From an uncultured Candidatus Saccharibacteria bacterium (GTDB lineage: Bacteria; Patescibacteriota; Minisyncoccia; Phycocordibacterales; UBA1006): 64,000 nucleotides of DNA. Made by a program: the position numbers. This document shows positions 30,001 to 36,000 of this stretch, piece after piece (position 1 is the stretch's first letter; every line of letters starts with the position of its first letter). The stretch spans positions 5,413 through 69,412 of the forward strand of contig CAYQCC010000002.1 of the NCBI GenBank assembly GCA_964415895.1, read 5' to 3'.

Positions 30001-33000
30001 ACAAAACCTCTACGGAAACTGTGTTCCTTCGGGTCAAACTTTTCCATTGGCTCCTTATGTAAAGCATGTGAAAATCCTTGTTGATAATGTGAAAGATGCA
30101 ATAGGCTTTCAATACGTTTATCAAGGAGAAATACTTCTTATCGAGTTCAAATAAATAGGTGCGAAAAACTTAAAAACGAGACTTGCCATTGGTAAGTCTC
30201 GTTTTGTGTATAGTGAATGTCAATTATCTGGTAAATGAGCCTTATTCTATTGATTTTATAAGTACTTGACAGATTACTAATAATATGGTAATATACAAGT
30301 ATAACAATAAAAAATTAATAAACAATCAAAAGGAAATTTTATGAAAAACTTAATCATTACACTAACAGCAATTATCGCATTAACAGTATCTGTAAATGCT
30401 CAAACAGGCATCAAATCACCTTTTAAAGCTAAAGTTACAGCAACTAACTCTTCCGACACTACTACAAATTACGGATGGGTTGAAGTAATTGGTAAAAAAG
30501 TTTTTATCTTTGAATTAGTTAAATCTACTGATAAAGCTGACAAGCTTGTCATCAAAGTAAAAGGAAACAATTGCTGCGATAAAAAGATTTACGAATACAA
30601 ACTTAACAAGAATTGCAGTTATGCAAATCTTACAAAAGTAAACGGAAGATGGACATTCCATTCTAAAGATCAAAAAACAGAAGAAAATGTTGTAAAATTG
30701 GACATTACAGATCAATTAACAGCAGCGCTTTAATAAGTTAGCACAAAAGAAAACAATCCTCTACCAAAAGTAGAGGATTCGTTGTTTTTACAGCTATTCT
30801 TGGTTTTCGAAAATGACAGGAATCAATAACTGATCTTTCTCTGGGTCAAATGGAGCTTCGCCATCTGATGGATCATCTTTTTTAAATAAGAGGCTTCCTA
30901 CTCCAGTATAATAAAACGATTCTGGCATTGTTACATTAAATCGTGCATGTTCAGTAACCATCCAGTCTTCATCGGTTGTGGCTGCAACAGTAGCAAATGC
31001 GTTTCCGTTAATATCAAGAAGTGTTACAGGAAACGATCCTTCGAAGTACCAATATCCTGGAGCCATTCCGCTGATGACTTGTTTTGGAGTTAGACGAGCA
31101 TGATTTCCAAAATTATCGAAAATAAGAGGTGAATATTTTTTTACAGGTTCATTATTTTCTGCAACAGGTGTGCCGCCAGGCGTTGGTGCACTTGAAAGCT
31201 TTGGAAATAATACCAATGCCAGACCCGCTAACACCAACGTGAAAGCTGCAAGCGCGACAATATGTAATACAGAATGGGTTTTATGTGACAGTGTCATATT
31301 GTCTATAGTGTACCATCAGAGGATTTTTTGAACAATGAATTAATTGTCTTTTATTGAAGTCGTTTAGTTGTGGATAATATCATTGCTTTTCCTTAAAAAT
31401 GTGGTATATTGACATCAGATAAAAAACTATGTCAAAAGAGCCCTTAAAAGGCTGTTTTTCACTATATATTACGATAGGCATATTGCCCTTTGTAAAATTA
31501 ATAAAATTGATGATGTATGAAAAAAGTATTTTTTACAATCGCCATGTCGCTTTTTACACTAGCGACTGTTTCCGCACAGGTTTTTTCCTGTGCGTCAGAT
31601 CTTGCAGAGCAATCTGCAAAGTCGAACTACAAGAATTATACGAGAGATCGTGAAAGTTCCATGTTGTTCGCAGACCACTACCGTAACAGTTTTGCAGCAC
31701 GTATGTTAAATATAGGCTGCCAAAGAACTGCTATTAAGTATCGAGTTCCTGTAGTATTTCACGTGGTACATTTGGGTGAACCTATTGGTACAGGCACAAA
31801 TATCCCTGACACCCAAATAAATAGTTCTTTAGCAAGACTAAATCAGTATTGGGCGCAGTTTGGCGTGGAATTTTTCCCCGCACAACAAGACCAGTACGGA
31901 AACCAGATTGTTAATGGAATTGACAGAGTTGATGGTTCAGGTGTGCCTCATTACGCATCGCTTGGAATTGATATCAGAACAAACCCAACTGGGGCCCCTG
32001 ATACCACAATCAAGAAGTTGAAAATGCTTCCTTGGTGGTTCTGTGCCAATGTATGGATTGTTAACAAGATTACAACTAGTTCTGCATATTCTAATATGCC
32101 TTCTGGTTATGAGTTTCAAGGAATTGTTATTGATGCTGGGGGAATTTCTGCACGATCCACATTGTCTCATGAGATGGGACATTTCATGGGCTTATTTCAC
32201 ACCTTTAACGGGTCAAGTGGAAGTAATTGTGCTGACAATAGTGATCCATATCATATGGGTGATTATTGTATGGATACTCCACCTTTGCTGCAAAGCGATT
32301 GTGGCGGGTTTTCTTCTTGTGGAATATTTTCAAACATTGTTAACTCATGGAAAAACATCATGGGTTACTGTGCTGGTGCTAATTTGTTTACACCAGATCA
32401 GAAGTTGCTTGTGATGGCAGCATTATTTGGAGAATTTCGCTGGGGACTGGTTCAGTCTGCGGCATTGAATCCGATAAATGTTCCTTTGGAGGTTTCTGTA
32501 GACAGTATTGCGTTCGTACAAAATACGGCGCTTGCAATCTGTAACGGCAACTTGGACACAAAAGTACAGTTTGGGAACTTCAGCTCGAATCAAATTGATT
32601 CTATTAAGGTTCACTTCAAGCTAGGTAGTTTAGATACCATCTTTACAATGCGTACCATTGGAGGATTCTTGCGTGGTTCGAATAACTGGTTAACCATGCC
32701 AACGGTTCATTTCACAAGTTCGGGAAATTACAATGCAGAAGTAGAATTCTTAAAAGTAAACAATGTAGACGATTATAATCTGATGAACAACAATCAGTGC
32801 ATAAGCGTTAATATTGTCGTTAAAACAATTACAATTTCTGTATCAATGAACACGCCATCGGCGGGTTCTGTTACAGGATCAGGAAACTTTTCCTGCGATG
32901 GTGTAAGAGACAGTATTCAAGTAACTATGAATCCAGGTCATTTATTTCAAGCAGTTAAAGAAGGAAACACTACAGTTTCTACTAGTCCTTTATTTGTATT

Positions 33001-36000
33001 ACCAATTGATTTATCAGGCGGAGATCATACATATAAAGTGTACTCAACAATGGCAACATTTTCAGTTGCTGCTACAGCCAATCCCACAAATGGAGGAACT
33101 GTATCATCAATGAACAATGTTAATTACGGAACACTGGTAACATTACCTGCTCATACAAAAGCTGGTTACAATTTTTTAAATTGGACGGAAAATGGAAACA
33201 TTATTTCGACTGATTCAAATCTTTCAGTTACCGTAATTTCAAACAGAAGTTTTGTAGCAAACTTCGAAAAGAAACGCTACAGCATTTTAACAACTGTTAA
33301 CGATAGTAATAAAGGAACCGTAACAGGTTCTGGAAATTATGGTTACGATACAATTGTAACTGCAAAAGCTAATATCAAAACAGGTGGTAAATGGGTTAAT
33401 TGGACGGAAAACGGAAACGCTGTTTCTTCTGATTCGATTTTCACATTCCATGCGTTGGGTGCTCGAAATTTGGTAGCAAATTTTACAACAGCAAGCTTTG
33501 TAATTTCTGGAACTGTAAATATTACAGGGGCAGGAACAGTTTCTGGTACGGGTACATTAGATTACGGAACAACAGCAATCCTTCATGCAACTGAAAATAG
33601 TTGCTATGCATTTGATGGCTGGAAAGAAGGCGCAAGTTTTGTTTCAACCAATCCGACGTACACGTTTACAGTAACAGGCGTACGCACTCTTACAGCTGTG
33701 TTCCACAAAAAACAATATGCAATTTCGGCTACTGTGAATGATGCCATAAAAGGTACCGTTACAGGCACAAACAATTACGATTGCGGAGAACAAGTACGCT
33801 TGGTTGCAACGCCAACAGCTGCAGGAAAATGGAAACATTGGACTAACAGATTTGGAGTTATTGTATCAACGGATTCGATACTGGTGTTTAGTGCTTCAGC
33901 CGATACGAGCTTAACAGCAAATTTCGGCGCAGCAGACATTGCAACAGGTATCAGTAACCACTCTTCTGCTATCGATCTTACAATCTTTCCAAATCCAACA
34001 AGTAGTTTTTTAACTATCAAGCTTGAGTCAATGGAAACTTTTAATGCCGTCATTTACAGCATTCAAGGCAGCGAGATGTGGCTGGGAAACATATCAAGAC
34101 AAGAAACTGTTAATGTAGCAGATTACCCAAAAGGTAACTACATTTTAATATTAAAACTTGATGATGGGAGCGATTCCATCACAACAAAGTTTCTTGTCCA
34201 GTAAATAAAAAATTATTTTTTCTTTTATTATATACAATTCGTCCATCATCAATTTTTATACAAAGTCGTTCATCTTTTTTGAACGGCTTTTTTCGTGGAA
34301 ATTTTTATACAAAAACAAGCGCGGCACCTTTGGTGCCGCGCTTGTTTTAATTTTGATTAATCTTTGATTAGCGGTAGATAATCCGTTTCATATCTTTTTG
34401 CACAATCATGGATAATTCGTTTAGCTTCAGTTATGTCTTCGAATCCTAATACTTGGCATGTGCCAGGTTTTTTCAAATCTTTATAATGCTCGAAGTAATG
34501 CTCCATTTCTTTTAATGCATGATCTCCTAATTGTTCTAATGAAGTAATGTGATCCATTCGTTTGTCATCACTAAGGACAGTGATGACCTTGTCGTCGATT
34601 TCTCCTGAATCAATAAATTTCATGATTCCAATAATGCGAGCTTCAACTAAACATCCTGCAGGTAGTGGTTCTGTAACGCCAACAATTAATACATCGATAG
34701 CGTCGCCATCATGATCCATTGTCGAAGGAACAGCTCCATATGTTACTGGATAGGCAAGTGAAGAATACCCAACGCGATCCAATTTCAAATGTCCTGTTTC
34801 TGTAATAAGTTCAAATTTATTTAATGTTCCTGCATTAATTTCAACAATAGTGTTGATGATGTTTTTTTCTTCATCTATAAAAGGAGGAAGTACATGCAAT
34901 AAGTTCAGCATGTATCGTGTCGGTGGAATGTTTATATTTGCCATAGATTCATATATATAATGTATGTTAATTATTCAGCTTGAGCTTCCGCTGCATCCAT
35001 TTCTGCTTGTCGCTGCGCAGCTGGAGCTTCGTTTTGTACTAGATCCGCAAGTGCAACAAAGTCATCCTCGTTTCCACTCATTGGATTTCCTTGCTCGTCG
35101 ACTTCTTCACCCTTGATTCCTTTAATATCAATTTTCCAATTTGTTAGCCGTGCAGCCAATCGAACGTTTTGTCCTGATTTTCCAATTGCCAATGACAATT
35201 GGTTATCAGCAACTTCAACATGTGCGATATGTTCTGCTTCATCAACATCAATAGTAACTACTTTTGCAGGTGCAAGAGAGTTGGCAATAAATTCTGGAAT
35301 AATTGGTGACCAAGGAATGATGTCGATGTTTTCACCATGCAACTCATCCTTGATAGTCTGAACACGTACTCCACGCTGACCAACACACGCTCCGATTGGA
35401 TCAATATTTTCATCGTGTGACCATACGGCAATCTTTGATCGTGATCCTGCTTCGCGTGATACTGATTTGATTTCAACAGTTCCTGCAGCAACCTCTGGAG
35501 ATTCCTGTTTGAACAATTCTGTGATCATTTGTGGATGTTTTCGTGATAATCGCAATGTTACACCTCGTGGACCTTCATCAATGGCATATAAAAATGCCTT
35601 AACTCGATCGCCTGGATGAAATGTTTCTCCTGGGATTTGTTCAGTAACATGCAAGATTCCTGTTGCTCGATAAAATTCAACAAAAATATTTCCACGTTCA
35701 ATTGTTTGAATAATACCACTAACAATAGTGTTTTGTTTTTCAGCATATTCACGACTGATCGTTCCTTTCTCTGCTTCACGCAATCGTTGCATGATAACCT
35801 GTTTTGCAGTTTGTGCTGCAATACGTCCAAATTCTTTATCAGGTTGTTCTAGTGGAAAAATTAATTCGTCATTCAATACAACGTCTGCCTTGATTCGTTT
35901 TGCATCGTTAATGTACAAATGTTTTTCTTCATCGAATCGTGGTAAGAGATCTTCGCTTTCGATTGCTTCTGGATCATGCATTCCTGATTCAATTTCTTCT

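Follow-up and report, generated by a model that had tools for sequence, protein, structure and literature searches.

A predicted pappalysin-family protease with a type-A T9SS sorting domain at a surface-protein hot spot of a Paceibacterota clade

Here we describe a gene at positions 31517-34204 (+) of a 64,000-nucleotide stretch of contig CAYQCC010000002.1 (assembly GCA_964415895.1), hereafter the window. The gene encodes a predicted zinc protease that ends in a type IX secretion system (T9SS) C-terminal sorting domain (CTD), and it lies among genes of the candidate phyla radiation (CPR) type. We consider it probable that the product is a secreted M43B protease on a stalk of one CARDB-like domain and B-repeats, that it derives from Bacteroidota, and that it is kept in a surface-protein hot spot of Paceibacterota. 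The acquirer would be a Paceibacterota (CPR) clade of genus to family level, and the hot spot lies between the genes for DoxX and small Ig-like proteins and those for inorganic pyrophosphatase (PPase) and NusA.

The gene product is laid out as follows. Domain models are from AlphaFold2 (AF2), and HMM stands for hidden Markov model.

31517..34204, + strand: complete open reading frame (ORF) of 895 aa, M43 protease, CARDB-like domain, five B-repeats and T9SS type-A CTD
31517..31579, + strand: Sec signal peptide, residues 1-21, MKKVFFTIAMSLFTLATVSAQ, recognised by eye from the sequence without a predictor
31580..31738, + strand: pro-segment, residues 22-74, with the conserved FSCASD motif and Cys25 at 31589-31591 (homolog alignment and model)
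31739..32482, + strand: M43B (pappalysin-family) catalytic domain, residues 75-322 (PF05572 and AF2 model)
32168..32200, + strand: zinc-binding motif HEMGHFMGLFH, residues 218-228 (H218, E219, H222, H228), columns invariant in homolog alignments
32360..32368, + strand: Met-turn M282 and Tyr-switch Y284 (MGY), columns invariant in homolog alignments
32483..32815, + strand: CARDB-like beta-sandwich domain, residues 323-433 (AF2 model and Foldseek)
32816..33943, + strand: stalk of five InlB-type B-repeats (Pfam Flg_new_2 and iterated repeat HMM)
33983..34201, + strand: type-A T9SS CTD, residues 823-895, with the motifs FPNPTS and KGNY and a KFLVQ end (HMMs, motifs and fold)

A type-A sorting domain at the extreme C-terminus

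Two curated family models recognise the tail. Por_Secre_tail (PF18962) scored 33.4 bits against a cut-off of 27 over residues 823-894 in the Pfam search, and TIGR04183 (T9SS type A sorting domain) scored 38.7 bits against a cut-off of 23 over residues 823-895 in the NCBIfam search. Within the 92-residue tail segment, P22, G48, G70 and Y72 are invariant and N23 and P24 nearly so, and the segment aligns with the CTD motifs of Bacteroidota. The AF2 model of the tail (pLDDT 85.5) contains seven strands, and its best Foldseek match among PDB chains is 8glk_D, the NucA CTD in the Flavobacterium SprA-PorV translocon, with an E value of 9e-5, a TM score of 0.83 on the target and an rmsd of 2.1 Å. The mirolase CTD 8qb1 comes next, and then the CTDs of PorZ, RemA and FspA (5m11, 8gl8, 8gl6, 8glj). 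The domain occupies the extreme C-terminus (823-895 of 895) of a protein with an N-terminal Sec-type signal. On every family feature that sequence and model can test, the tail is a type-A T9SS CTD. When the 64-kb window was searched with a custom CTD HMM, no further CTD gene turned up.

A predicted M43B zymogen on a variable stalk

Peptidase_M43 (PF05572) scored 37.8 bits in the Pfam search, against a cut-off of 23, and M282 and Y284 line up with the 'NFMSY' of human pappalysin-1 (PAPP-A). For the first 440 residues, the AF2 model (pLDDT 83.8) has the promirolysin zymogen 6r7u as its top Foldseek match (E 3.4e-11) and PAPP-A 8a7d as the next. The sole match of the PDB sequence search was PAPP-A, over residues 213-296 from the zinc motif to the Met-turn, and mirolysin was reached by the fold alone. 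Taken with the modelled fold, the sequence assigns the protein to the pappalysin family, MEROPS M43B, as a predicted zinc protease.

The initial annotation, made from the sequence alone, had read the gene as an M43/pappalysin-like metzincin with an HExxHxxGxxH motif, five to six B-repeat-like modules and a Por secretion tail. The catalytic assignment is borne out by the PF05572 score, the invariant motif and the promirolysin and PAPP-A fold matches, and the tail assignment by the PF18962 and TIGR04183 searches, both above curated cut-offs. The repeats come to five InlB-type modules, the first of them degenerate. Flg_new_2 (PF18998, divergent InlB B-repeat, with modules of ~75 residues) scored 133 bits over five stretches in Pfam, and the iterated repeat HMM set the boundaries at residues 434-509 (degenerate), 511-589, 585-662, 657-735 and 731-809. 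In front of the repeats, the strands of the CARDB-like domain span residues 326-433 of the AF2 model and match the CARDB domain 3idu (Foldseek, TM 0.72 on the target). The number and content of the stalk repeats vary among orthologs, even between close alleles, and two orthologs carry an extra PKD module.

At the other end, the signal peptide has a positively charged n-region, a hydrophobic h-region and the c-region VSA/Q, and the orthologs keep the signal. We did not retain the '...AQ' end of the signal as a Bacteroidota signature, because ...FAQS is likewise found in a PG_binding_1 protein that the window encodes at 12040-12870. The pro-segment that follows forms helices at residues 29-37 and 41-57 in the AF2 model; residues 1-26 have a pLDDT below 50, and no zinc contact was modelled. 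Cys25 of the FSCASD motif is nearly invariant across 13 homologs (≥90%), and its position matches those of Cys23 in mirolysin and Cys24 in cytophagalysin, both cysteine-switch zymogens (PMC8259862, PMC6949598, PMC11674741). By analogy with these two enzymes, Cys25 is a putative cysteine switch.

Cytophagalysin is the closest characterised analogue, and mirolysin the closest solved structure. The likeness to cytophagalysin CPL1 from Cytophaga sp. L43-1 and its Flavobacterium orthologues is taken from the published description (PMC11674741) rather than from a sequence comparison. Shared with CPL1 are the pappalysin-family domain, the short pro-segment, a long Ig-like string and a terminal T9SS-type CTD of ~75 residues, and the CPL1 landmarks C24, H231, E232, H235, H241, M284 and Y286 have their counterparts in C25, H218, E219, H222, H228, M282 and Y284. 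CPL1 differs in that it comes from a diderm Bacteroidota with a complete T9SS and that its stalk consists of eight Ig-like domains instead of a CARDB-like domain and InlB B-repeats. The N-terminal half finds its best structural match (TM 0.62 on the target) in mirolysin of Tannerella forsythia (6r7u/6r7v; PMC6949598, PMC8259862). Mirolysin is an M43B zymogen with a Cys-switch pro-segment, and it is exported by the T9SS via its C-terminal domain. However, the sequence identity is ~18%, the CARDB-like domain and B-repeat stalk are missing, the CTD is of the KLIKK type and the host is a T9SS-positive pathogen. PAPP-A is a eukaryotic regulatory protease of 1,500 residues, and the likeness to it is limited to the catalytic core.

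The window is of Paceibacterota type and no T9SS was detected

Marker genes and synteny agree in placing the window in Patescibacteria/Paceibacterota. A syntenic contig labelled Candidatus Paceibacterota (DAOLZR010000011.1) has NusA, trigger factor and ClpP proteins that are 97%, 91% and 82% identical to those of the window, and the closest named relative of NusA is from a Patescibacteria group bacterium. In the NCBI taxonomy, Candidatus Paceibacterota is now the phylum Minisyncoccota of the kingdom Bacillati. In its content, the window resembles part of a reduced CPR genome, in which housekeeping genes (CTP synthase, UvrD, RNase Y, ClpP, trigger factor, NusA, TIM, PGK, RecJ, RNase H, NDK and an RNase J-like beta-CASP protein) are interspersed with many ORFs without a family match. 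ComEC, a VirD4/TraG-like ATPase and PG_binding_1 surface proteins are also encoded. A scan of a genome collection was of no use for taxonomy, as it matched only Bacteroidota/FCB, and these to the repeat region, and did not recover the genome of the window itself.

VirD4/TraG-like ATPases and ComEC are typical of CPR bacteria. In the window, the gene for the VirD4/TraG-like coupling ATPase (50574-53384, +; weak matches to TraG-D_C, TrwB and DUF87) adjoins that for ComEC (49011-50528, +). The two are consistent with the monoderm-type type IV secretion system (T4SS) and DNA-uptake apparatus of Patescibacteria (PMC12102498).

We found no T9SS or outer-membrane gene in the 64 kb, using Pfam on ~50 ORFs and NCBIfam on ten ORFs without a Pfam match. 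Precomputed Pfam annotation covers ~100 kb of related loci, and no family of either kind appears there. The machinery that a functional T9SS substrate should have in the same genome thus does not appear within the window or the annotated related loci. Could the protein still be an ordinary substrate of a T9SS, or of an outer membrane, encoded elsewhere in its genome? About 64 kb of that genome was inspected, and the CTD is canonical. We nevertheless regard this as very improbable, because neither the window nor the ~100 kb of related loci holds a family of either kind, because the markers place the window in Patescibacteria, which are proposed to lack an outer membrane and to have a T4SS of monoderm type (PMC12102498), and because published reports of T9SS are confined to Bacteroidetes and allies (PMC5445135). 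In a cell that has no outer membrane, as proposed, and with T9SS so far reported from Bacteroidetes, the CTD could not serve as a signal for export across an outer membrane. The initial annotation had seen a CPR-like genome without T9SS components in the window, and NusA, the synteny, the gene content and the Pfam and NCBIfam scans all agree with it. Its suggestion of a different envelope type is disfavoured, as the markers and synteny are all Patescibacteria and the window contains neither an outer-membrane nor a T9SS gene.

The tail has the same seven-stranded sandwich as the known type-A CTDs (TIGR04183/PF18962; the NucA CTD 8glk in the F. johnsoniae SprA-PorV translocon; mirolase 8qb1) and shares their PNP, GxY and terminal K-x-F-x-V motifs. 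What sets it apart is the machinery: no cognate system is detectable in this region of the genome, nor would one be expected in the phylum. Consequently, export, cleavage and lipid attachment cannot run as described for Bacteroidota. By family the tail is a type-A CTD; that the protein is a functional T9SS substrate does not follow, with the machinery undetected in the window and the annotated related loci.

Full-text searches of the literature found no paper on T9SS or T9SS-type sorting domains in Patescibacteria/CPR bacteria, and none addressing Paceibacteria with Chitinophagales. The GenBank automatic annotation of a syntenic ortholog, HQV64799.1 (P0003), as 'T9SS type A sorting domain-containing protein' of a Candidatus Paceibacterota bacterium predates our analysis, and we did not find a published discussion of it. 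Encoded on DAOLZR010000011.1, it is the closest relative of the window protease; the identity between the two is 66%, and with three repeats versus five the ortholog is the shorter one.

The gene occupies a conserved position in at least seven species

The insertion site has the same borders wherever it was found.

30794..31297, - strand: left border of the insertion site, a small conserved Ig-like protein of 167 aa that is membrane-anchored and found in every related locus
34357..36239, - strand: inorganic pyrophosphatase (34357-34944) and NusA (34971-36239), right border (Pfam and synteny)

The site lies between the DoxX and small Ig-like genes and PPase-NusA and is held in at least seven species. 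The same protein with the same neighbours is present in three independent Logan assemblies, and six further species, which come from different projects, carry diverged alleles at this position (loci L021, L024, L027, L028, L029 and L030, the last with a local rearrangement). NusA is 89-97% identical to that of the sister loci, and the synonymous divergence of the flank (NusA dS 0.37-1.4) indicates that the related loci belong to separate species. In a more distant relative (L031, NusA 78%), the same backbone carries an empty site, where the Ig-like border protein, which has a weak Gmad2 match, is also present.

A Bacteroidota gene wrongly joined to CPR DNA during assembly or binning would give a foreign-looking gene in this place, and the tetranucleotide correlation of the protease gene with the window is in fact 0.81, compared with 0.89-0.94 for housekeeping genes. 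However, other surface-protein genes of the window are as atypical (0.61-0.78), and the protease G+C content equals that of the host. An assembly chimera is effectively ruled out by the identical junctions in the three independent assemblies, by the filled position in the six other species and by a promoter-like box that is conserved CPR-wide upstream of the protease gene, and we give an artefact of this kind next to no credence.

Evidence for repeated acquisition and recombination of the sorting-domain cargo

The CPR alleles are not monophyletic; they are interleaved with Bacteroidota copies in a neighbour-joining tree and in the identity matrix. One allele clade, clade A, comprises the window, L021, L024 and L027, with 76-82% identity in the N-terminal half. 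The identity of the L028 allele is 46% to the protein of the window, against 64% over 968 residues to P0011, which comes from a metagenome-assembled genome (MAG) labelled Bacteroidia (locus L032). The L029 and L030 alleles are 27-33% identical to all others and sit near P0016. The gene contexts of P0016 and of P0008, whose cluster includes proteins labelled Chitinophagales, are those of Bacteroidota, with more Por_Secre_tail genes, GH31, PhoD-CTD, UvrA and AnmK (loci L033 and L035).

P0008 (from a Chitinophagales-cluster MAG, L033) and P0011 have the architecture of the window protein, namely M43, Flg_new_2, sometimes PKD, and Por_Secre_tail. They are 44-47% identical to it and up to 64% identical to the CPR allele L028. 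The L033 locus differs in its Bacteroidota context, with another CTD gene, GH31 and UvrA, and has no synteny with the CPR locus. We also asked whether L032, the locus of P0011, could be a mis-binned CPR contig; its other ORFs match neither the CPR nor the Bacteroidota comparison loci and so speak for neither assignment. L032 corresponds to JAWKNQ010000040.1 of GCA_041391605.1, and a GMC-oxidoreductase gene at its positions 2900-4740 looks frameshifted.

The L028 allele (L028:12064-14949, -) is a mosaic. In a sliding-window comparison, its first ~450 residues are P0011-like, with 55-86% identity per 60-column window. Residues ~449-509 are L027-like (80%), and the CTD is L024-like (81%, versus 45% to P0011). 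The variable region also holds a second type of CTD cargo, a CotH-domain protein of 736 aa in L030 (L030:6429-8639, -). In the more distant L036, this region likewise encodes a CotH-domain CTD protein, of 874 aa (L036:10001-12625, +), and the closest named relatives of this family are Chitinophagales. Within clade A, the flank dS of the syntenic L021, L024 and L027 is comparable to the protease dS, which fits co-divergence of the gene and its flanks.

The empty site, the interleaved alleles, the mosaic L028 allele and the CotH cargo together point to repeated acquisition and recombination. As read from these sequences, the site is a hot spot where Bacteroidota-type, CTD-tagged surface proteins are repeatedly acquired, replaced and recombined. 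Bacteroidota are relatively frequent gene donors to Patescibacteria, and transfer from Bacteroidota to Paceibacteria has been noted (PMC12455944). The proposal in the initial annotation of a horizontally acquired adhesin-protease is supported by the same architecture in Bacteroidota contexts, the interleaved tree and the empty site in L031. It had suggested compositional or phylogenetic tests of transfer, and the two came out differently. The phylogenetic part stood, through the interleaving in the neighbour-joining tree, while the compositional part gave nothing that we could use as evidence, with a G+C content equal to that of the host and a tetranucleotide correlation of 0.81 that is no worse than those of the other surface-protein genes.

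The sorting domain is under constraint

In the allele clade of the window, NG86 gives approximate dN/dS values of 0.08-0.14 over the M43 domain and 0.33-0.42 over the CTD, and codon bootstraps put the upper 97.5% bounds for the CTD at 0.64-0.84. By these estimates, the CTD is under purifying selection that is about three times weaker than that on the catalytic domain. The clade A gene has co-diverged with its flanks to a dS of ~0.7 to >2, and its CTD still scores above the curated HMM cut-offs. No allele without a CTD was found, although whole stalk modules come and go, and the CTD was kept at the extreme C-terminus through the L028 recombination that swapped the catalytic half. We also considered the ratio of CTD to catalytic conservation as a discriminator and rejected it, because the range of the CPR pairs (0.51-0.71) lies within that of the non-CPR pairs (0.43-1.40).

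Several points weigh against the reading that a Bacteroidota-derived protease is kept here with its CTD as a folded module. The dS values are near saturation, which makes the dN/dS values approximate. The CTDs of the L029 and L030 proteases score far lower with our own CTD HMM (43 and 20 bits), which fits a relaxation in some lineages. Conversely, a useless CTD should show deletions, and its unfailing retention hints at a role more specific than that of a stabilising module. The tree is by neighbour joining only, and its interpretation leans on the identity matrix and the sliding-window comparison. The donor taxonomy comes from MAG labels and gene context, and the 'Bacteroidia' label of L032 is not confirmed. 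Finally, the absence of T9SS covers the 64 kb and ~100 kb of related loci rather than the whole genome.

One alternative is that the CTD hitch-hikes on a recent acquisition and has not yet been lost, its apparent constraint coming from recombination with Bacteroidota alleles or from selection against misfolding. Several independent acquisitions and replacements, the about threefold weaker constraint relative to the catalytic domain and the degenerate CTDs of L029 and L030 agree with such a relic. We find it rather unlikely, since clade A has diverged to a dS of ~0.7 to >2 with a CTD that passes the HMM cut-offs and has a dN/dS significantly below 1, and since the tail is lost in no allele while stalk modules are gained and lost.

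Another alternative gives the CTD a function outside the cell that makes it. The CTDs might be recognised by the surface PorV, SprA and PorU of a Bacteroidota host, possibly one of the Chitinophagales, and this recognition would dock or covalently graft the protease, adhesin or CotH protein of the epibiont onto the host surface. Such mimicry of a substrate of the host T9SS would account for a CTD that, under purifying selection, keeps its canonical motifs and its place at the very C-terminus in every allele, for the CPR-type CTD that outlasted the replacement of the catalytic half by recombination, and for CTDs on at least two unrelated cargo families (M43 and CotH) in the clade. The closest verified or named relatives of both families are Chitinophagales/Bacteroidota, the closest superposition of the CTD model is with a CTD caught in the SprA-PorV translocon, and Bacteroidota have been proposed as partners of Patescibacteria on the grounds of gene transfer and co-occurrence (PMC12455944). 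On the other hand, the association with Bacteroidota is a hypothetical one, the T9SS normally takes its CTDs from the periplasmic side, and capture from outside is without precedent. The weak CTDs of L029 and L030 also speak against it, and the CTD-to-catalytic ratio of the CPR pairs, which lies inside the non-CPR range, is uninformative. Selection against misfolding alone can account for a constrained terminal domain. We therefore hold recognition by a host T9SS to be quite improbable. If it were true, the hot spot beside nusA would be an arms-race locus that resamples host cargo genes to keep the mimicry current.

A folded terminal domain should in general resist destabilising changes. Under the reading that we prefer, of a Bacteroidota-derived protease kept in a Paceibacterota hot spot, the CTD would persist as a terminal beta-sandwich that keeps its fold and most likely serves in binding or stabilisation.

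A proposed path from export to substrate

We propose that the N-terminal signal peptide, recognised from the sequence, sends the pro-enzyme through Sec. In a cell assumed to have no outer membrane, Sec export would already place the protein outside, and a T9SS would not be required. The enzyme may be kept latent by a Cys25 cysteine switch as in mirolysin and cytophagalysin, with the motif and the fold both seen, and would be activated by loss of the pro-segment. The variable stalk might present the enzyme or bind targets. The protease may then digest proteins of a host, a neighbouring cell or the environment, which would provide an auxotrophic epibiont with amino acids or with access to the host surface. 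The locus itself evolves by repeated replacement and by intragenic recombination with Bacteroidota-type alleles.

Hosts and attachment modes are known for hardly any CPR bacteria of Paceibacteria type. The clade described here appears to repeatedly take up, and to maintain under selection, surface proteins with a Bacteroidota tag, and the relatives of this cargo are of Chitinophagales type. This offers a testable host or partner hypothesis, Chitinophagales, for an uncultured CPR clade. The locus is also a natural experiment on the function of a T9SS CTD without its secretion machine, and it cautions that neither a T9SS nor a diderm envelope can be concluded from a T9SS-CTD annotation alone. 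As a recombination hot spot, the segment from trigger factor/DoxX to NusA should be useful for strain typing in the clade.

Regulatory elements and other genes of the window

The following elements surround the protease gene or lie in the variable region.

31400..31410, + strand: extended -10-like promoter element TGTGGTATATT, ~105 nt 5' of the ATG, conserved upstream of all CPR alleles
31486..31516, + strand: AT-rich proximal leader (CCCTTTGTAAAATTAATAAAAT...) without a Shine-Dalgarno sequence, aligning across the CPR alleles
34267..34293, + strand: terminator-like hairpin CGTTCA...TGAACG followed by GCTTTTTT, from the sequence; the same hairpin is called on the minus strand
34312..34348, no strand assigned: G+C-rich hairpin of 17 bp between the genes for protease and PPase, which converge here, a bidirectional terminator by hairpin call
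29510-30154 and 30341-30733, + strand: two lineage-specific small secreted proteins in the variable region, with signal peptides and without a Pfam/NCBIfam match

The element at 31400..31410 is the putative promoter of the protease gene. In the upstream alignment, TGTGGTATATT is also kept in the divergent L028 and L029, and a simple consensus scan of the protease upstream region did not call it as a -10-like element. As an alternative promoter, we considered the Bacteroidota -7 motif TAnnTTTG and rejected it; this motif is absent upstream of the CPR alleles and present upstream of the Bacteroidota copy in L033. The AT-rich leader (~33 nt) also aligns with the region upstream of P0011 in L032, and it was probably transferred along with the protease gene.

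Across the window, a Shine-Dalgarno-like 4-mer precedes 6 of 38 genes, and many have a TATAAT-like box 5-10 nt before the ATG (example starts from this survey are 4095, 30794 on the minus strand, 42629, 48198 and 50574). The position of these boxes near the ATG suggests that leaderless mRNAs are widespread in the genome.

The two small secreted proteins at 29510-30154 and 30341-30733 were seen only in the window lineage and in L001 and L002. Together with a third small exported protein at 28241-28714 (-), their genes have a near-identical 5' leader, AATCAAAAAGAAATC. One of the three signals is lipoprotein-like (...TSC) and two end in ...NAQ.

At the right border, the window PPase (34357-34944) is 40-43% identical to its counterparts at the same position in sister genomes, which are 70-98% identical to one another. 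The adjacent NusA is 89-97% identical, which suggests that the PPase at this margin of the hot spot was replaced by a xenolog.

Downstream of NusA, a run of family-less genes opens with 36946-38307 (+). This gene encodes a secreted protein of 453 aa that matches no family and contains three to four Cys-rich repeats (YNP.FKDCR.CHPG.A.Y...TG.C), and the run has counterparts of similar size at the same position in related loci. On the other side of the protease, a tyrosine recombinase gene (14217-15323, -; Phage_integrase with a SAM-like N-terminal domain) is followed by a 542-aa ORF without a family match. A tRNA-Gly(TCC) gene lies at 19967-20038. What is left of a mobile element may be seen here, ~16 kb from the protease. 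Near the start of the window, three paralogous TrmB-type transcriptional regulators are encoded within 6 kb (910-1689, 4095-4865 and 6319-7080).

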